Assembly: GCA_963802255.1 (NCBI GenBank)
Contig: CAWDHY010000002.1
Location: 183,480 to 247,479, forward strand
Source: Candidatus Magasanikiibacteriota bacterium
Lineage (GTDB): Bacteria > Patescibacteriota > Patescibacteriia > Magasanikbacterales > GWA2-37-8
Length of the DNA stretch: 64,000 bases
Direction of reading: 5' to 3'
The position numbers were made by a program, and so were the translations under genes. Below are positions 25,369-56,637 of the stretch, in pieces. Position 1 is the first letter of the stretch. Each line of letters opens with the position of its first letter. The notes beneath the pieces are model-generated. The model searched no databases, had not been told where the DNA came from, and worked only from the letters and a program-made list of their open reading frames with translations.

Positions 25369-25377
25369 TTATAAAAA

Positions 25378-25403
25378 CATCCGCTTGAGGGCGGATGTTT
25401 TTA
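25378..25403 (+). terminator. intrinsic terminator for topA (catccgc-ttgagg-gcggatg-ttttt)
   Basis: 7-bp stem followed by a T-tract. Confidence 0.7.
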
Positions 25404-25569
25404 TTGCAGGGGCGAAAGGCGAACCTTAATGCCTTTGGTGATGTTAAGGGCCGATCGCCTCCTGCAAATAATACCTTAGCATAAAAAACTAAAAATATCA
25501 ATGGGCGGCTCCCTCTCAACTACTTGTGTCAATCCTATATTTCGACGCCTAAATTTAAGAAATAAAAAA

Positions 25570-25805
25570 GGGGCCACTCCGAAAAACGATCGGAGGGGCC
25601 CCATACCTGTATCTTGCCGCTAATCTTGTCTGTGACACTGCCCGTCATGTTTTGACAACAACCTGGGAGGGTTTTGACGCGACACTGCCGCTAGCGGTCT
25701 TTTCCGGGCGATTTCTTCCATGACTTCTTCCACGGTCGCCCAGCGCACTCCAACAGGCATGGAGCGCCTTTGTAAAGGAGCGGTACTTGCTCTGACCTGC
25801 TGCAA
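25570..25805 (-). ncRNA. GC-rich transcription unit of about 235 nt bounded by promoter and terminator; candidate small ncRNA, or alternatively a 46-aa small ORF (MPVGVRWATV...)
   Basis: Minus-strand promoter TTGACG N17 TAGACT (25811-25839); terminator ggggccactccg...cggaggggcccc plus T-tract (25563-25604); internal hairpins and direct repeats of GGCAGTGTC and GTCAAAAC; no ORF starts downstream of the predicted transcription start with a good SD. Confidence 0.3.
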
Positions 25806-25810
25806 CAAAT

Positions 25811-25839
25811 AGTCTATCACAGAGCTTTTTTGTCGTCAA
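25811..25839 (-). promoter_or_regulatory. sigma70-type promoter TTGACG N17 TAGACT
   Basis: Hexamers with 17-nt spacing on the minus strand. Confidence 0.45.
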
Positions 25840-26008
25840 GAAAAGCTATAAAAAGCAAAAACCCCGTGTCCAGAGGGCACGGAGTTTTGCAGCACTAAGT
25901 TCTTAACATCACGAAAATACTATAGCACAAATTATCCATCTTGTCAAGTCCGGCAAATAGAGATAGAATAAAAAATGGGCCATATCAGGGCTTTTATTTT
26001 ACAGAACT

Positions 26009-45806: not shown

Positions 45807-45865
45807 ATAATTCGCGTCATTGCTCCGCACCCATCCCATTTAGGCGGAGATAACCTGTTAATTTA

Positions 45866-45918
45866 ACAAAAAACTAGAAGCAATAACATTGAAATAAATT
45901 CAATTCTATTGCTTCTAG
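45866..45918 (-). terminator. long hairpin (12-bp perfect stem ctagaagcaata / tattgcttctag with nested palindromic loop) plus T-tract on the minus strand, between rpsJ and rplC
   Basis: On the rpsJ to rplC transcript direction the stem-loop is followed by TTTTTTG; sits in an unusual 300-nt rpsJ-rplC spacer. Confidence 0.5.
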
Positions 45919-46153
45919 CCATGAACAATCCGTCAAAAAACTGCGGATTAAAATGGCCTTTTTACTTGATTTTTCAATATTTATCTCCTTGTCGCTAAAA
46001 CTCGTTTAAATGTTTTTCATCCGCCTTGGGCGAAGAATCTTATTTACTTGAGTTTTTTCAACAAATTACTATGTGGCGATTTTACTAGAAATATTCTATC
46101 CTGTCAAGCCCCGACGGGAGCGACTACCGGCTCTACGCAAGGCAAACCAGTAT

Positions 46154-47745: not shown

Positions 47746-47886
47746 ATGGTTCAATTTTTACGGCACTGCCGCCAAGTGGTTGGTGCAGATTTGTTAACCA
47801 GCCGCTTCACAAATATGTATATAAAATTAAATTGTTCAGATTCGGCACTAAAAACCTTAGAGCCGCCTGCTCCAATTTATTACGAG

Positions 47887-47914
47887 ATTATAGCAGATTT
47901 GAGGAATTTGGCAA
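47887..47914 (-). promoter_or_regulatory. tuf promoter TTGCCA N16 TGcTATAAT (extended -10)
   Basis: Minus-strand hexamers about 130 nt upstream of the tuf ATG. Confidence 0.5.
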
Positions 47915-47930
47915 GGGGGTGGATTGTGGA

Positions 47931-48467
47931 TTACTCAACCGGTTCCAAATAGAACCTTTCTTCTTCATGCGGAACAGTGGAAAGATTCTCTTCTTCTATC
48001 CATCCAACCCTTGGCTTGTCATCAAATTTTCTTTCCCGATACACTACGTCATTCAGCACATCGGCAACCCGGGGAATCATTGTCGCTTTTTTATCAGTCA
48101 CCAATTCTTTTTCTTCCACGGTTTTTTCCTTTTCATCTTCAGCAGTATCTTCAATTGTATTATTATCCTCCACCATATCATCCGCCTCCAATTCTTCCTC
48201 ATCCTTCTTTTGAAGACCTCGCCAATCAGCAATATCACGATTTATTTTTTCCAACATTTCCTGTTCCGATAAATCACTAATTTTTTGAAAATTATGATTT
48301 GGCAATTCTTCAGGGGTCCAATCAATTTGCCTCAACTGAGCCAAATTTTCATACTCGTCCAAAGACATTACAGCAAAGACCTCGTCTGATTCGCTATCTG
48401 CGATTACCAGTCTGTCTCCTGTTTCTCTTATTAAATTGAATAGGCGTTTTAATTGTTTTGAATTCAT
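47931..48467 (-). CDS. Phd/YefM antitoxin-like N-terminal domain fused to a long highly acidic C-terminal tail (178 aa)
   Basis: The N-terminus (RLVIADSESDEVFAVMSLDEYENLAQLRQ) resembles the Phd/YefM fold; the remainder is about 35% Asp/Glu; promoter-like TTGACA N16 TAACAT upstream. Confidence 0.45.
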   Translation of the reverse strand: MNSKQLKRLFNLIRETGDRLVIADSESDEVFAVMSLDEYENLAQLRQIDWTPEELPNHNFQKISDLSEQEMLEKINRDIADWRGLQKKDEEELEADDMVEDNNTIEDTAEDEKEKTVEEKELVTDKKATMIPRVADVLNDVVYRERKFDDKPRVGWIEEENLSTVPHEEERFYLEPVE

Positions 48468-48525
48468 AAAAAATATTGTATTGATGAGTGCCGTTATGTT
48501 ATCAATTTTTCAAGAAATGTCAAAC

Positions 48526-48564
48526 AGAAAAGAAAAACCCCTGTGCTTTGAAGAAACACAGGGG
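48526..48564 (-). terminator. intrinsic terminator for the coiled-coil gene (cccctgtg...cacagggg plus T-tract on the minus strand)
   Basis: Perfect 8-bp GC stem followed on the minus strand by TTTTTCTTTTCTGTTT. Confidence 0.65.
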
Positions 48565-48589
48565 CAAAATGTTTGAAGAAAAACTTTGG

Positions 48590-49828
48590 CTAGCTTGAGG
48601 GGGAATGTTGCTTGAGGGTGGACATGGCCGCCGCGATCTCGTCCTGTAGGGTCGTTTGCAAAGCCTCTTTCGCTTTGGCCATCCTGTTCCTGGCCTCAAC
48701 GATCGCCTTCTGCATGGCAGCGGTTTCCATATCACACTCGGCCACGACGGCCAGCTTTTCATCCTGCTTTTGTTTCAGAATGGACCGACGGGAAGAGAGG
48801 TCTGCGAAGAGACTGGAAAGCTCGGACTCGACGCTCCTGATGTCCTGCATGACTTTGGCATGCGATACGCGCAAGCCCGCGAGCTCCTTGCTTTTGTCAA
48901 CCAGGTCTTCGCGCACAGTCGCCAGCTCTCGCGTCTCGTAGGTCAGCCTGGAAATCACTCCCCGAAGCAGGTCGTTCACCAGCTGCCTCGCCACGATCAC
49001 CGCGTTGTTCTCGTTGACCTCATCGGCCATTACTGCAAGCGACTCGTTGTCGGGGAAAATGATACCCACTTCGGAAAGAGCCTGACTGATCAGGCGGCTG
49101 TCGCGCAAACGACCGCCTTCGGTCGCCGAATTGGCGACTACGATTCTTTCTTCGGCTGACTCCATCTGACGGAAAGCCGCCGCTTCTGCCGCTTCTGCTT
49201 CGCGCAGACGCGTTTCGGCTTGCTCTCTCCGCGCGGAAGCCGCCTCGAATTTCTCTTGAGAGAGAATCTCGGTCGCAATCGCGTCACGCTCGGCGTTTTC
49301 AATATCCGCCTTCAATTGGTCAATCTGATGATAGACTTCTTCGAGCTCGATACGCTTCTGTCCGATGGCCTGATGGCCCTGCATGATCTTGTTGGCCAGC
49401 ATGTCCAATTCCTGAACACGCTTGTCCATTTCTTCGAGCGCTTTCTCACGGCTTCTTTTGGAAGTCGATCCGGCCATCAGCCGTTCAACGGTTTCCTGAA
49501 GCGCCACGAACTCTTCCGATTCCTTGCCGATCTTGAGGATGAAAGCGACATACGAACAGACCTGGGGTGGCTTTACCAGCCGGACGTTCTTGGCGATGAA
49601 TTGCCGAATAACCCATATCGCATCATCTTTTTCCACCCGTTCGGGCTGAAAAATATGCGCGAACACCTCACAAAGGTTGTGCTCGAATTCCTTGTTGACA
49701 CTGCGTAGGAGGCCTAGCAAGCGGTCGGCGTCATCGTTCGTGGGCGGTCTGGGCATCTGAGCGAAGAGCATTACCAGCAAGCTGATAATCTCGTCTTTTG
49801 AGTACTCCGTTTCCCTGTTTTTTGCCAT
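48590..49828 (-). CDS. GC-rich (about 53-57% GC) 412-aa protein: about 110-aa N-terminal globular region followed by an about 300-aa coiled coil
   Basis: Single long ORF across the GC-rich island; SD aaagggtga 5 nt before the ATG; heptad-like E/A/R/L-rich sequence. Confidence 0.6.
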   Translation of the reverse strand: MAKNRETEYSKDEIISLLVMLFAQMPRPPTNDDADRLLGLLRSVNKEFEHNLCEVFAHIFQPERVEKDDAIWVIRQFIAKNVRLVKPPQVCSYVAFILKIGKESEEFVALQETVERLMAGSTSKRSREKALEEMDKRVQELDMLANKIMQGHQAIGQKRIELEEVYHQIDQLKADIENAERDAIATEILSQEKFEAASARREQAETRLREAEAAEAAAFRQMESAEERIVVANSATEGGRLRDSRLISQALSEVGIIFPDNESLAVMADEVNENNAVIVARQLVNDLLRGVISRLTYETRELATVREDLVDKSKELAGLRVSHAKVMQDIRSVESELSSLFADLSSRRSILKQKQDEKLAVVAECDMETAAMQKAIVEARNRMAKAKEALQTTLQDEIAAAMSTLKQHSPSS

Positions 49829-49898
49829 TGATTCACCCTTTCCGCAAGTTTTTCTTGCTTTGTTAAAAGATCATTTTCAGCCCTTTGCCGAACGCCTA

Positions 49899-49927
49899 AC
49901 CCTAACACAGCTGTGAATCATTGTCAA
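49899..49927 (-). promoter_or_regulatory. candidate promoter TTGACA N17 TAGGGT for the coiled-coil gene
   Basis: Good -35, weak -10. Confidence 0.3.
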
Positions 49928-49988
49928 TATCACAAAATCATATAGATAAAAAATGTAATAAATAGCTAACCTTAGCCAAATAACAAGG

Positions 49989-50017
49989 TTGACAAAAGTG
50001 CAAAAATGTGCTATAAT
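49989..50017 (+). promoter_or_regulatory. consensus sigma70 promoter TTGACA N17 TGcTATAAT
   Basis: Perfect hexamers with extended -10, 27 nt upstream of the 50045 ORF. Confidence 0.65.
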
Positions 50018-50044
50018 ATATATTGTCTTTAAATAATATTTAAT

Positions 50045-50443
50045 ATGCCAACACCTGAAAAAGGCGGCCATGACTGGTCAAATTGGAAGGCGAAAAAATC
50101 TGACACAACAGGACTAGATTTAGAACAGCAGGTTGCCAGAGCGACTGATGCAGCTGTTGTTGAAGGAGCGGAAGCTATTTTCCAAGATAACATCACCACC
50201 CGTAGCAGTATAGGCAGAAAAGAAATTTTAGATTACGATCCGAACGAAGAGGGAATCGCAATGCCGGACGAAAAAGCCATAAATATTAAAACAAAAACTT
50301 TTAAAGAAATACAAAATGAAAATATCAGCAATCTAAAACACAATGTTGATATGAGCGGAGCTGTGGAGCTTGGGGCGACCGGCACTGATGATGAACCATT
50401 TGAAATTGAACATGACCCGCAAATATATAAACAAGCGGGCTGA
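50045..50443 (+). CDS. hypothetical acidic protein (132 aa)
   Basis: ORF directly downstream of the consensus promoter; native AT-rich composition. Confidence 0.45.
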   Translation: MPTPEKGGHDWSNWKAKKSDTTGLDLEQQVARATDAAVVEGAEAIFQDNITTRSSIGRKEILDYDPNEEGIAMPDEKAINIKTKTFKEIQNENISNLKHNVDMSGAVELGATGTDDEPFEIEHDPQIYKQAG

Positions 50444-50471
50444 TAAATTAATAATTAATTTTAAAAATAAT

Positions 50472-50711
50472 ATGGAAAAAGAAAATTCTTTTTATAGTGG
50501 CAGTATGGAGGAAACAGGTGCTCATTTAATTGATATCCGAGAGTTTAGTCAATGGGACCCAATTCAAGAAATGCAAGAACAAATAAACCATGAAATTGAT
50601 GAAAATTTGGAAAAAGAGGCGCAATTGAGAGAATACAAAGAAGATAAAGCCAGATCAAAAAAATTATGGGAAGAAATAATGGCGAAAATCAAAAATGAAA
50701 AAGAAATCTAA
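50472..50711 (+). CDS. hypothetical small acidic protein (about 79 aa; start MEKENSFYSG)
   Basis: ORF-track 50370 start overlaps the previous gene in another frame; an internal ATG gives a non-overlapping gene. Confidence 0.35.
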   Translation: MEKENSFYSGSMEETGAHLIDIREFSQWDPIQEMQEQINHEIDENLEKEAQLREYKEDKARSKKLWEEIMAKIKNEKEI

Positions 50712-50756
50712 ATAGAGAAAATACCAGTTTGATAAAGCCATATAAAAACTAGAATT

Positions 50757-50785
50757 AAAAGAACCCCCGTTTCGGGGGTTCTTTT
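50757..50785. terminator. bidirectional intrinsic terminator gaacccccg-tttc-gggggttc with flanking A/T tracts
   Basis: Perfect stem; serves fusA (-) and the small ORFs (+). Confidence 0.75.
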
Positions 50786-50796
50786 AATATATCCGA

Positions 50797-52872
50797 TTAT
50801 TTCTTTTTACCCTCAATAATTTGTTGCGCTACATTGTTCGGCACATCGGCATAATGTGAAAATTCCATTGTTGAGCTCGCTCTGCCTTGCGTCATATTGC
50901 GCAAGGAAGTGACATAACCGAACATGCTCGCAAGCGGCACTTTGGCTTTCACCACTTTCATCTGTCCGCGGTCAAACATTTCTTCCACTTGGCCGCGTTT
51001 TGAATTTAAGTCGCCAATAACATCACCCATAAACTGTTCCGGGGTCAAAACTTCAACCTTCATCACCGGCTCCATAATCACCGGGTTGGCTTTTTTACAA
51101 GCCGTCTGGAAGGCCATTGAACCGGACATTTTAAAGGCAGCTTCAGACGAATCAACCTCATGATACGAACCGTCATAGCACGTCACCTTCACATCCACCA
51201 CCGGATAACCAGCCTGAACACCGCGAGTCAGAGATTCTTTTACACCCTTTTCCACTGCCGGAATATATTCACGGGGAATCACGCCACCCTTAATTTCATC
51301 AACAAACTCAAAACCCTTGCCCGATTCCTGCGGTTCAACACGCAACCAGCAATGACCATATTGACCGCGGCCTCCGGACTGCTTAACATATTTACCTTCA
51401 GCTTCGGCCGAGGTGCGGATGGTTTCTTTATACGCGACTTGTGGATTGCCGACATTGGCTTCCACTTTAAATTCGCGCTTCATGCGGTCCACAATAATGT
51501 CCAAATGCAATTCGCCCATGCCGGAAATAATTGTTTGCAGTGTCTCTTCATCGGTATGCACTTTAAATGTCGGGTCTTCTTCAGCCAACTTTTGCATGGC
51601 CATACCGATTTTTTCCTGATCGGCTTTCGTCTTCGGTTCAATAGCAATTGAGATGACCGGTTCAGGAAAAGTAATTTTCTCCAAAATTATCTGATGATTT
51701 TCATCGCAGAGAGTATCGCCGGTCACGGTCGCCTTCAAGCCAATGGCCGCGGCGATTTCACCGGCGAAGACTTCATCCACGTCTTCACGGTGATTGGCGT
51801 GCATGCGGACAATTCGTCCGATGCGTTCCTTCTCACAGCTGGTGGAATTATATATATATGAACCGGCGCTGACCTTGCCTGAATATACGCGGAAGAAAAT
51901 TAAACGGCCGACGAACGGATCGGTGGCAACTTTAAAAGCCAAAGCGGAAAAATGTTCATCATCATCAGCGCGCCTGGTAATTTCAGCGTTTGTGTCCGGA
52001 TCAATCCCCTGAATCGGAGGCAAATCAGTTGGAGCCGGCAAATACCAAACTACAGCATCAAGCATCAACTGTACGCCCATATTTGAAAGAGCCGAACCGC
52101 ACATTACCGGAAAGATATCTCCGCGCAAAATCATCTCACGGATGTTGTTTTTTATTTCATCAACAGATAATGTTTCGCCGTTCAAAAAATGATTCATCGT
52201 TTCATCATTTGCTTCAGCCACTTTTTCTAACATGATATTGCGAAATTTCTGAACTTTTTCCGTCAGGTCATCAGGAATAGAAATTTCCGTTACATTTTCG
52301 CCATTCTTACCTTCAAATTGAAACGCTTTATTTTCAATCAAATCAATAATGCCGGTATAGGATCCCTCTGCCCCAATCGGTAGCTGGATGGCTATGGCAT
52401 TTTTTGATAATCGTTCCTGAATGGAATCCAGACTCATATAAAAATCAGCTCCCATTTTGTCCATCTTATTGATGAAGGCAATACGCGGAACATCATATTT
52501 GTCAGCCTGATGCCAGACTGTTTCCGATTGCGGTTCCACGCCCTGTGAGCCGTCAAATACAGCCACAGCGCCATCAAGCACGCGCAAAGAGCGCTCCACC
52601 TCCACGGTAAAGTCAACATGGCCGGGAGTATCAATCAAATTTATACGGTGACCCTTCCAAAAACAGGTAGTCGCGGCTGAAGTAATAGTAATACCGCGCT
52701 CTCTTTCCTGCTCCATCCAATCCATCTCTGCCGCACCTTCGTGTACTTCACCGATTTTATGTTTTTTTCCGGTGTAAAAAAGCACGCGCTCGGAGATAGT
52801 GGTTTTACCGGCATCAATGTGGGCCATAATGCCGATATTTCTTGTCTTATCCAATGGATATTCACGAGGCAT
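50797..52872 (-). CDS. fusA: elongation factor G (start [25 protein letters not shown])
   Basis: GTPase motifs [21 protein letters not shown]; five-domain length. Confidence 0.95.
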
Positions 52873-52888
52873 ATATATGTGATTAATT

Positions 52889-53365
52889 TTATTTTGCGAA
52901 TCTTGCAAAGTGAGCGAAGGCCTTGTTGGCTTCAGCCATACGATGTACATCATCGCGCTTTTTTATGGCATCACCTAATCCTTGCGACGCTTCATTTAAT
53001 ACAGTAGCAAGCTTCTCCAGCATCGGCTGGCCTTTTTTGGCGCGTGCCGCATCAATAATCCAGCGGAAGGCAAGCGCGTTCTGTCGTTCGCCGCGCACCG
53101 GCAACGGCACCTGATAGTTGGCGCCACCGACGCGTTTGGAACGGACTTCCACTTGCGGGGCGACAGTGCGGATTGCTTCTTCAAAAATTTTCACCGCGTC
53201 CTTCTTGGTTTCCGCGGAGATTTTATCCAAAGCACCATAAACGATAGCTTGTGCAGTTGATTTTTTACCGCCAAGCATTACATAATTGATAAATTTTCCG
53301 AGCAAAGCGTTGCCGTATTTTGCATCCGGCTGTGGCAGTCGCTTTGGGGCTTTTTTTCCACGCAT
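52889..53365 (-). CDS. rpsG: 30S ribosomal protein S7
   Basis: 158 aa, S7 signature. Confidence 0.9.
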
Positions 53366-53386
53366 AGTATTATATGTTATGTATCA

Positions 53387-53816
53387 TTACGCTTTCTTCG
53401 CTTTCGGACGCTTGGTGCCGTAGACGCTTCGACCGCGTCGGCGCGATTCAATTCCTTGGGTATCATAAACACCGCGCACAATGTGATAGCGCACGCCCGG
53501 AAGATCTTTTACACGACCACCGCGCAAAAGCACAATTGAGTGCTCTTGAAGGTTGTGTCCTTCACCCGGAATATAGGCGATTACTTCCATGCCATTTACT
53601 CAAACGGACTTTGGCGACTTTACGAAGAGCCGAGTTCGGTTTTTTTGGAGTGGTGGTGTACACCTTGGTGCACACTCCGCGTTTAAAAGCCGAACCCTTA
53701 CTGAGCACGGTTTTCTTGCGGTGCAGATTATCGGTCATGAACTGCAAAGCCGGGGTCTTTGATTTGGTGACCTTGTCTTTACGGCCATGGCGCAACACTT
53801 GATTGATTGTTGGCAT
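53387..53816 (-). CDS. rpsL: 30S ribosomal protein S12, interrupted by a single-base frameshift near 53595-53597
   Basis: N-terminal part ([13 protein letters not shown]...KVRLS) and C-terminal part ([20 protein letters not shown]...) lie in different frames; removing one A from an AAA run restores the consensus [14 protein letters not shown] junction. Confidence 0.8.
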
Positions 53817-54028
53817 AGATAAATTTAAATAAAAAAGCTGACCTTTGTAAAAATCAGCCACGATTTTAAGCTAAAGGTTGCTTCCGCTTTGGTTTAGATA
53901 GACCAAAACGAAGTTGACGTTCTAGAAACAGGATATATGACAGCAAAAGATTTGTCAAGTCCAGCCTGCCATTCCTTATATAATAATATTTACAAAAAAT
54001 AATCATTAAGCTATTATATAAAAAATAT

Positions 54029-54402: not shown

Positions 54403-54431
54403 AAAAACGGGCCAGAACGGCCCGTTTTTTT
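54403..54431. terminator. bidirectional intrinsic terminator aaaaacgggcc-agaa-cggcccgttttttt
   Basis: Perfect stem with flanking A- and T-tracts. Confidence 0.75.
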
Positions 54432-56637
54432 ATAAATCACCAACATCTCTTAAAAAACTTCCCGGACTTATTTTTATTTGCGAATCTTCGTCTATATATT
54501 CTACTTCGTCTGAATCATCGAGCGACAAACTCCGCCCATTGCCGAGAAGTGATTTATCGTCCAAAAGTTCACTGTCAATTTCTTCCAAAAATATACTTGG
54601 TCCTGGCAATGCGTCGCCCCAGCCCGAGGCTGGCCGGCCTTGGGCCGGGCCGTTCTCCATCGGATAAGTTAAAAATAAATTTTTCTTGGCGCGGGTGATA
54701 GCGACATAAAATAATCGCCGTTCTTCTTCAATCCCGCCCCGTTCACTTGCCGCCCTGCTATTTGGGAACGCTCCGCTCGCCAGGTTGATCATAAATACGG
54801 CCGACCATTCCAGCCCTTTCGCCTGATGCACGGTAGAAAGTACTATTTTTTTGTCTGTCGGCACTTTGTTATTTTGATTTTTTTGACCATAATCCTCCGT
54901 CAAATTCGCTTCAGCTAAAAACTCGGCTAAATCATTAAACTTCCCGGCATAAATCACCAATTGTTCAACATCGCCACGGCGGTCCCGGCTGTCAAAATAT
55001 TCAGCCTCCAGATAGTCATTATAGCCGGTCTCCAAAATCGTCCGCACCAGTTCAGCCGGGTGGCTGGTGCCGATACCAAGAAGCTCATCCCATATCCGCG
55101 TAAAATTTTGCCAGCCAACTTTTGCTTTTTCGCCCAACATATCAAGACCGATTGATTTGATTTCAGATACATTTGCCGCACCGCGAACCGCCTGATAAAT
55201 TTTTTGCGCCGCCACCGGCCCAATTCCTTCTTCTTTTAACAATATGCGCATCCACGCTGCTTCATCAGCCAGATTACTTAGCAAACGCAAATAAGCAAGC
55301 ACATCTTTCACGTGCGCCCGCTCAAAAAAGCGCACACCACCGCGATAGTCATAGGCAATGCCGGATTGCGCCAGTGCCATTTCCAATTGTTGAGAATGGT
55401 GTGAAGCACGAAACAAAACGGCGATTTCTTTAGGCGCGACACCTCCGTCTAAAATTTCAGAAATTTTTCTTACCACAAAATCCGCTTCTGCTGCCTGGTC
55501 TGCTTGCGGTCTTAACTCCGGTTTTACTCCGCTTTGAAAAATTGTTTTTAAATTTTTCTGATATTGATTTATGTTATTAGCGATGACATCGTTAGCTAGC
55601 GACAAAATCTCCTGGCTGGAACGATAATTTGTTTCCAGTTTAAAAATTTTAGCATCAGGATAATCTTTCCCAAAGCTCAAAATATTTTCAATGTCAGCGG
55701 CGCGAAAAGAATAGATGCTCTGCGCGTCGTCGCCTACCGCTAACAGGTTGCCGTGTATTGATGCCAATTTTTTAATAATGCTTGCCTGAAGGCGGTTGGT
55801 ATCCTGATATTCGTCAACTAAAATGTATTTGAATTGATTCGCGTATTTGGCCAAAATCATATTGTCATCCTGAACTTGTTTCAGGATCCTTTTTTCTGTT
55901 TTATCAGATGCTGAAATAAATTCAGCATGACCTGGACGCTGTAAAAGCAAAAGTAAATTCGCCAATAAATCATCAAAATCCATTGAATTCGACGCGCGCT
56001 TTCTTTTTTCATAATCACCGGCAATCTGTTTTATTTCTTCAGACCATCTGAACCAGCTCGGATATTTTATATCTAAAACATCTTCAATTGTTGTTTCAGC
56101 ATTACGGGCATAGCTTATTATGCCTTTTATCACGCCAGCCGAAGGAAATTTTTGTCCGCCTGTTTCCAAATTTAAATTTTTCAAGCTAAGTTTTACCAAC
56201 GCTTCGCTGTCATCGGCGTCTAAAATTGTAAAATTTTGTTGATAACCGATTACGCCGGAATATTTTCGTAAAATTTTGTAGGCAATATGATGAAAAGTTC
56301 CGGCCCAAGGCAAAACGTTCATCGTTTTGTCATTCCGACCGACCCGCCAGCTGGCGGGGAGCGGAGGAATCCCTTCGGAAACGCCGGAGGGATCCCTCGG
56401 CTTCGCTCGGGATGACAATTCGGCGACGCGTTTTATCATCTCCCCTGCCGCCTTGTTGGTAAATGTAACCAACAAAATATTTTCTGGGGATACGCCCTGC
56501 TCCAAAAGATAAGCCACGCGATAAGTGATAGTCCGCGTCTTGCCCGAGCCGGCGCCGGCCAATACTAAACAAGGGCCATCGCCTGTGAGGACGACGGCCA
56601 ATTGTTCCTGATTAAGTTCTGATGAAAAATCAGTCAT
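54430..56637 (-). CDS. UvrD/PcrA-type superfamily 1 DNA helicase carrying a 30-aa in-frame insertion from a palindromic repeat element
   Basis: Motifs AGAGSGKT, TFTNKAA, TFH, DEYQDTN, VGDDAQSIY; the GC-rich insert encodes RAKPRDPSGVSEGIPPLPASWRVGRNDKTM between motifs I and Ia. Confidence 0.85.
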   Translation of the reverse strand: MTDFSSELNQEQLAVVLTGDGPCLVLAGAGSGKTRTITYRVAYLLEQGVSPENILLVTFTNKAAGEMIKRVAELSSRAKPRDPSGVSEGIPPLPASWRVGRNDKTMNVLPWAGTFHHIAYKILRKYSGVIGYQQNFTILDADDSEALVKLSLKNLNLETGGQKFPSAGVIKGIISYARNAETTIEDVLDIKYPSWFRWSEEIKQIAGDYEKRKRASNSMDFDDLLANLLLLLQRPGHAEFISASDKTEKRILKQVQDDNMILAKYANQFKYILVDEYQDTNRLQASIIKKLASIHGNLLAVGDDAQSIYSFRAADIENILSFGKDYPDAKIFKLETNYRSSQEILSLANDVIANNINQYQKNLKTIFQSGVKPELRPQADQAAEADFVVRKISEILDGGVAPKEIAVLFRASHHSQQLEMALAQSGIAYDYRGGVRFFERAHVKDVLAYLRLLSNLADEAAWMRILLKEEGIGPVAAQKIYQAVRGAANVSEIKSIGLDMLGEKAKVGWQNFTRIWDELLGIGTSHPAELVRTILETGYNDYLEAEYFDSRDRRGDVEQLVIYAGKFNDLAEFLAEANLTEDYGQKNQNNKVPTDKKIVLSTVHQAKGLEWSAVFMINLASGAFPNSRAASERGGIEEERRLFYVAITRAKKNLFLTYPMENGPAQGRPASGWGDALPGPSIFLEEIDSELLDDKSLLGNGRSLSLDDSDEVEYIDEDSQIKISPGSFLRDVGDL
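56329..56418. repeat. GC-rich palindromic repeat element of about 90 bp (copy U) inserted in frame in uvrD/pcrA; RPE-like
   Basis: Terminal inverted repeats TTGTCATTC ... GGATGACAA; internal palindromes cccgccagctggcggg and gagggatccctc; about 75% identical to the copy in tgt. Confidence 0.6.

Follow-up and report, generated by a model that had tools for sequence, protein, structure and literature searches.

A one-nucleotide frame break in the rpsL gene of a Magasanikbacteria-like Patescibacteria genome as a probable error of the deposited sequence

The ribosomal protein uS12 (gene rpsL) is essential, and in CPR genomes of roughly 1 Mb it is normally encoded by a single gene copy. Intact uS12 proteins of Magasanikbacteria/Patescibacteria MAGs, such as MCX6782289.1 (assembly GCA_026396515.1) and PIT88472.1, consist of 142 amino acids, and we know of no split uS12. 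Essential translation genes may involve a change of reading frame, and for the release factor gene prfB (RF2) this is a programmed +1 frameshift at CUU UGA C with an upstream Shine-Dalgarno element. At the AAA-UAA frameshift sites of Euplotes, tRNA re-pairing keeps two of the three base pairs. When a frame is rescued by transcriptional slippage, about 7–9 or more identical bases are needed, as in the poly(A) tracts of endosymbionts and at the IS element or dnaX sites. Local errors may be introduced by assembly, and for a curated 1.13-Mb CPR genome 13 of them have been described (Chen et al., 2020, Genome Res, PMC7111523), which corresponds to about one error per 87 kb.

Here, we analyzed a stretch of 64,000 nucleotides of a Patescibacteria contig (referred to as the window), in which rpsL is located on the minus strand. 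The gene heads an rpsL-rpsG-fusA cluster downstream of uvrD and the same arrangement is found in relatives. An earlier note on this DNA had described S12 as split across two overlapping frames, and this description was borne out by our data. The gene starts with the ATG at 53816 and follows its normal frame up to Ser73 (AGT). Past this residue, the frame encodes an out-of-frame tail of 11 amino acids and is closed by a premature TGA. The remaining part of S12 (67 amino acids) is encoded in the +1 frame between the ATG at 53590 and the stop codon at 53389–53387, and it ends with the C-terminal sequence KAKKA. The two open reading frames share an overlap of 29 nucleotides. It can be seen from Table 1 that the break involves a single base, exactly where it had been placed before, and that the Pfam family PF00164 (Ribosom_S12_S23) is divided over the two reading frames.

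Table 1. Coordinates of the rpsL frame break and of the adjacent genes in the window
Feature	Coordinates	Strand	Evidence
rpsL codons 1–73, original frame	53598..53816	-	PF00164 positions 6–43 (ORF 1); 98–99% amino acid identity to intact relatives
AAA run with one extra base; AAC or AAT (Asn74) in relatives	53595..53597	-	Alignments, codon table, L092
rpsL Gly75–Ala142 and TAA stop, +1 frame; Asn74 is AAT after repair	53387..53594	-	PF00164 positions 47–109 (ORF 2); synonymous/non-synonymous counts
Premature TGA closing the 11-aa out-of-frame tail	53562..53564	-	Sequence read
+1-frame TGA, upstream limit for any rescuing frame change	53600..53602	-	Read from sequence
rpsG (uS7), intact, directly downstream of rpsL; str-operon context	52889..53365	-	S12-S7-EF-G order common to relatives
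fusA (EF-G), intact; likely start MPREYPLDK	50797..52872	-	691-aa orthologues in relatives

The minus-strand sequence around the break reads CGT TTG AGT AAA TGG CAT GGA, and removal of one A from the AAA triplet converts it to CGT TTG AGT AAT GGC ATG GAA, which encodes RLSNGME. As deposited, the site is GAGTAAATGGC directly 5′ of the ATG at 53590, and its counterpart without the extra A is GAGTAATGGC. Deletion of one A from this triplet had already been suggested as repair, and this suggestion was exactly right. The deletion yields a uS12 of 142 amino acids with a full-length PF00164 domain. The repaired protein scored 124.6 bits against this profile (the gathering score used as cut-off is 22.3 bits) and covered positions 7–109 of its 110 positions. 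It carries two conserved uS12 blocks (10 and 12 residues) and its gene is located in a str-operon context. The best solved relative is uS12 of the Bacillus subtilis 30S subunit (3j9w_AL), with which the repaired protein aligns over the full length (residues 1–140 vs. 1–138, E = 4.7e-56). All hallmark uS12 blocks are present, and there is no functional difference between the two proteins but only the frame break at the DNA level. We found a single S12 copy within the 64-kb window. The 67-aa reading frame and the neighboring UvrD are both contained in a public protein collection, where they are assigned to a single NCBI/ENA contig with a length of 255,295 bp, and these data indicate that the extra base belongs to the deposited record and was not made by cutting the window.

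When we compared the repaired protein with intact S12 of Magasanikbacteria/Patescibacteria MAGs (e.g., P0003 and P0129, the latter being MCX6782289.1), we observed 98–99% amino acid identity. MCX6782289.1 and PIT88472.1 share with it the length, the same 14-residue N-terminal insertion and the rpsL-rpsG-fusA order downstream of uvrD, but the window alone has an extra nucleotide after codon 73. The flanking DNA of these relatives is only about 80% identical, and thus they represent species different from that of the window. Truncated S12 fragments were absent from the best 120 of 8000 scored homologues, each of which was either an intact S12 of full length or a tandem chimera formed in assembly. 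In the 90% cluster around the nearest relative (31 members), all 15 listed members were intact, and each of the 13 related loci that were read at the DNA level encodes Arg-Leu-Ser-Asn-Gly (R-L-S-N-G) without the extra base. A frame break conserved in orthologues, as it would be expected for programmed +1 frameshifting, was therefore found neither in the 120 best homologues nor in the 15 cluster members nor in the 13 DNA loci. One of these relatives (L092) reads CGT TTG AGT AAC GGC ATG GAA GTA ATC GCC. Over the 30 nucleotides around the site, it is identical with the window except for AAC vs. AAAT, so that it corresponds to the window minus one base. A pattern scan of JGI metagenome contigs, in which one or two bases were allowed at the site, retrieved two contigs of other species, both without the extra base. 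Scanning genome contigs with the repaired S12 gave at least 600 matches, mostly from distant phyla, and among those listed there was one close relative (L002). A UvrD homology search for further assemblies of this species yielded only the source contig at 100% identity, the next-best UvrD being 80% identical, and exact look-ups of the 67-aa reading frame, S7, EF-Tu and UvrD gave no independent (Logan) assembly.

In L001, the nearest relative identified first, the site reads CTG TCG AAC vs. TTG AGT AAAT in the window, which amounts to five substitutions plus an indel, and this pair raised the suspicion that a shift site had evolved here or that the patch was scrambled. We rejected this idea because other relatives use TTG/TTA AGC/AGT AAC/AAT at this place and because L092 equals the window minus one base. 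Judged from these alignments, the rpsL lesion is a plain one-nucleotide insertion.

To the five closest relatives, rpsL of the window shows 88–92% nucleotide identity. Upstream of the break, we counted 15–18 synonymous vs. 1–2 non-synonymous codon differences, and downstream of it 9–24 synonymous vs. 0–1 non-synonymous differences. No second lesion was detected in rpsL in this comparison and the frame break is the sole lesion. Several lesions and relaxed constraint, as they are characteristic for a decaying pseudogene, were not observed for rpsL, and since almost all codon differences after the break are synonymous, the gene is not decaying. These counts argue that rpsL is under full purifying selection essentially until the present. 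Such a pattern is compatible with an artefact, with a mutation that occurred very recently or with a frameshift that is decoded, but incompatible with an old pseudogene.

The second of these options requires that the insertion is real and the allele non-functional. It might then represent a recent mutation (e.g., in non-viable cells), a variant miscalled as consensus or a gene backed up by a second rpsL. The deposited sequence has the base, and a single recent-looking lesion without further decay is as compatible with a very young mutation as with an error. However, S12 is essential, and a lethal allele cannot be in the majority in a population of sufficient abundance to yield a 255-kb contig, and a second rpsL that could serve as back-up is absent from the 64-kb window. 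For these reasons, we consider a real but non-functional allele unlikely.

A decoded frameshift would be confined to a short interval. Any rescuing shift must occur after the +1-frame TGA (53602–53600) and before the 0-frame TGA (53564–53562), and if the invariant Asn74-Gly75 is to be kept, it must fall within 53600–53594. This shift window is open in both frames, and in the +1 frame the downstream half of the protein shows perfect conservation. Both observations would be compatible with a lineage-specific programmed +1 frameshift after CGU UUG AGU, during which either one A is skipped (AAU GGC) or tRNA-Lys slips from AAA to AAU. The product would be full-length S12, possibly autoregulated by ribosome accuracy. 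The slip from AAA to AAU is the sole tRNA re-pairing on offer at the site and it retains two of three base pairs, as at the Euplotes sites.

However, other properties of the site argue against such recoding. None of the relatives has the extra base, not even those sharing 90–92% identity in rpsL DNA. The 0-frame codon following AAA is UGG, which is a sense codon and not a stop, and with 0.77% of codons it is not rare either. A slippery P-site codon followed by a stop or a rare codon was not found at the rpsL site. In-frame AAA-TGG occurs seven times elsewhere in the genes of the window, with two ribosomal protein genes (rplP, rplB) among them. This number is close to the expected value of 8.7 and indicates that the codon pair is not avoided as a shifty site. 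Neither a GGAGG-like nor another Shine-Dalgarno-like stimulator was detected within 25 nucleotides upstream of the site, and Shine-Dalgarno usage was not seen at any of 29 gene starts of this organism. The 141 nucleotides around the site did not form a significant RNA fold (z = −1.23, 21 of 200 shuffled sequences folded as well), and the break site contains no repeats. A stimulatory element, whether Shine-Dalgarno-like or a downstream structure, was hence not found at this locus. Moreover, S12 is needed stoichiometrically, which would require near-100% shifting. In prfB there is likewise a +1 shift in an essential translation gene, but in contrast to prfB the rpsL site lacks a fully re-pairing P-site codon, an in-frame stop in the A-site, a Shine-Dalgarno-like stimulator and conservation in orthologues. 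Our literature search retrieved no published report of rpsL frameshifting. One paper pairing rpsL with frameshifting terms was discarded, since it concerns the CTG start codon of rpsL in Deinococcus and not frameshifting. Considering these data, we regard lineage-specific programmed frameshifting as very improbable. The same low probability is assigned to the more explicit scenario, in which the extra A would be real and fixed, and one Magasanikbacteria-like lineage would make full-length S12 by an efficient +1 frameshift at AGU-AAA-U that has recently arisen without a known stimulatory signal. Recoding would then affect a core protein of the decoding centre.

The overlap of the two reading frames brings up another scenario, in which residues 1–73 with the 11-aa tail and residues 76–142 synthesized from the internal ATG at 53590 would assemble on the 30S subunit as a split S12. 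The ATG of ORF 2 is located exactly at Met76 and the overlap of 29 nucleotides could permit coupled re-initiation. However, Met76 is ancestral in intact relatives and the ATG is therefore no adaptation. In addition, the GAGTAAATGGC-ATG context does not resemble the leaders at the 29 inspected gene starts, which are AT-rich, and a split gene was present in none of the relatives examined. A functional split S12 thus appears extremely improbable. The extra base sits in an A run, and RNA polymerase slippage on this run might drop one A from some transcripts and restore the frame. However, the run comprises only three A residues, whereas about seven or more would be required for slippage, and we consider this mechanism extremely improbable at rpsL.

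In our opinion, the extra A most probably goes back to a sporadic local error, made in assembly, consensus or sequencing, and the essential rpsL is otherwise normal. The earlier note had preferred an error of a single base in sequencing or assembly, and this preference is supported by our finding that no relative examined has the extra base. It also fits the strong purifying selection on both halves of the gene and the absence of recoding or slippage features. According to this explanation, the metagenome-derived genome of this Magasanikbacteria-like member of the Patescibacteria has an ordinary single-copy rpsL at the head of its rpsL-rpsG-fusA operon. One spurious A would have entered the deposited consensus, so that AGT AAT GGC was written as AGT AAAT GGC, and the gene in the cell would most likely be intact and encode a normal 142-aa S12. 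We infer that the extra base is missing from the real DNA.

Other frameshifts were not found in about 50 further open reading frames of the window that were scanned with Pfam, and all reading frames with domain matches are consistent with intact genes. All ribosomal protein genes of the window that were tested by Pfam are intact, and the sole truncated Pfam match (TctA) runs off the window end. The coding density of the window is 93%. The window contains over 300 A or T runs with a length of six to eight, one of them an A7 run inside rpsL, and none has led to a visible frame break. Since no other frame breaks were observed in the window, the assembly is not generally indel-prone and the rpsL break is isolated. 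Two properties count against the error explanation, namely that the extra base lies outside any long homopolymer and that the assembly is not generally indel-prone. On the other hand, the error frequency of about one per 87 kb in the curated CPR genome (PMC7111523) makes one error in 64 kb unremarkable. The errors described there resemble the one proposed here in that they are isolated in an otherwise clean CPR contig and in that their frequency has the same order (13 in 1.13 Mb vs. 1 in 64 kb). The two cases differ in that the published errors were recognized from missing read support, whereas the proposed error in the window was deduced without reads.

Among the homologues, the top-scoring “S12” proteins (P0001, P0002, P0004–P0011; 197–231 amino acids) each consist of two S12 sequences that are joined head to tail via a conserved block of 11 residues. 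They are encoded on ENA contigs, most of which are shorter than 1.5 kb while one has a length of 4.4 kb. These tandem joins look like de Bruijn-graph assembly chimeras in a hyper-conserved gene and not like biology. The rpsL gene, the near-invariant blocks of which are common to co-occurring populations, is demonstrably prone to metagenome misassembly.

If the frame break is an artefact, it matters for bookkeeping only. In the public record, rpsL would appear either as a pseudogene with a frameshift or in the form of two fragments, and a split rpsL lowers marker-gene completeness estimates and causes S12 to drop out of concatenated ribosomal protein trees. A spurious 67-aa “protein” enters the databases, and this reading frame is already present in the protein collection. 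If the base were real, recoding would be seen for the first time in the gene of a universal ribosomal protein, but the evidence leaves little room for this possibility.

Some additional properties of the window were observed in the course of this analysis. When the 25 nucleotides upstream of each gene start were inspected (e.g., 53817–53841 and 53366–53390), a Shine-Dalgarno-like sequence was present at none of the 29 starts and the leaders were AT-rich (...ataat ATG). The lack of such sequences suggests Shine-Dalgarno-independent initiation in this organism. The uvrD gene (54430–56637, minus strand) encodes a UvrD-type helicase of 735 amino acids, whereas the protein of most relatives comprises 673–702 residues. 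Part of the additional length is due to an insertion within the N-terminal helicase domain (Pfam UvrD-helicase), which extends over residues 8–327 and is described by a 271-position profile. The interval between tuf and fusA (47760–50790) contains lineage-specific reading frames without Pfam match, among them those for an acidic protein of 178 amino acids and for a 412-aa protein. Two small plus-strand reading frames of this interval (50045–50443 and 50370–50711), which also lack a Pfam match, overlap in different frames, and in relatives a glutamine-amidotransferase gene is located in the interval. Between topA and a relA/spoT-like gene, a stretch of 640 bp (25369–26008) carries no long reading frame but only an open frame of 71 codons on the minus strand, and neither an Rfam nor a tRNA match was obtained for this stretch.

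The spacer between rpsJ and rplC (45807–46153, minus strand) is an untranslated stretch of roughly 350 nucleotides inside the S10 operon, for which no Rfam family was found at the gathering score. Its predicted folding is far superior to that of shuffled sequence (z = −5.3). A long hairpin at about 45869–45920 is followed by T6 and is terminator-like. A second stem at about 45816–45854 (TTATCTCCGC...GCGGAGCAATGA) is located just upstream of the probable true start of rplC (ATG 45806, MKFIIGKK). Both elements are kept almost base for base in three relatives (L091, L092, L094), although the flanking genes are only 67–70% identical, and the spacer of the relatives has an additional inner hairpin (CTCTG..CAGAG). 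The spacer is a candidate ribosomal protein leader or attenuator in these Patescibacteria.
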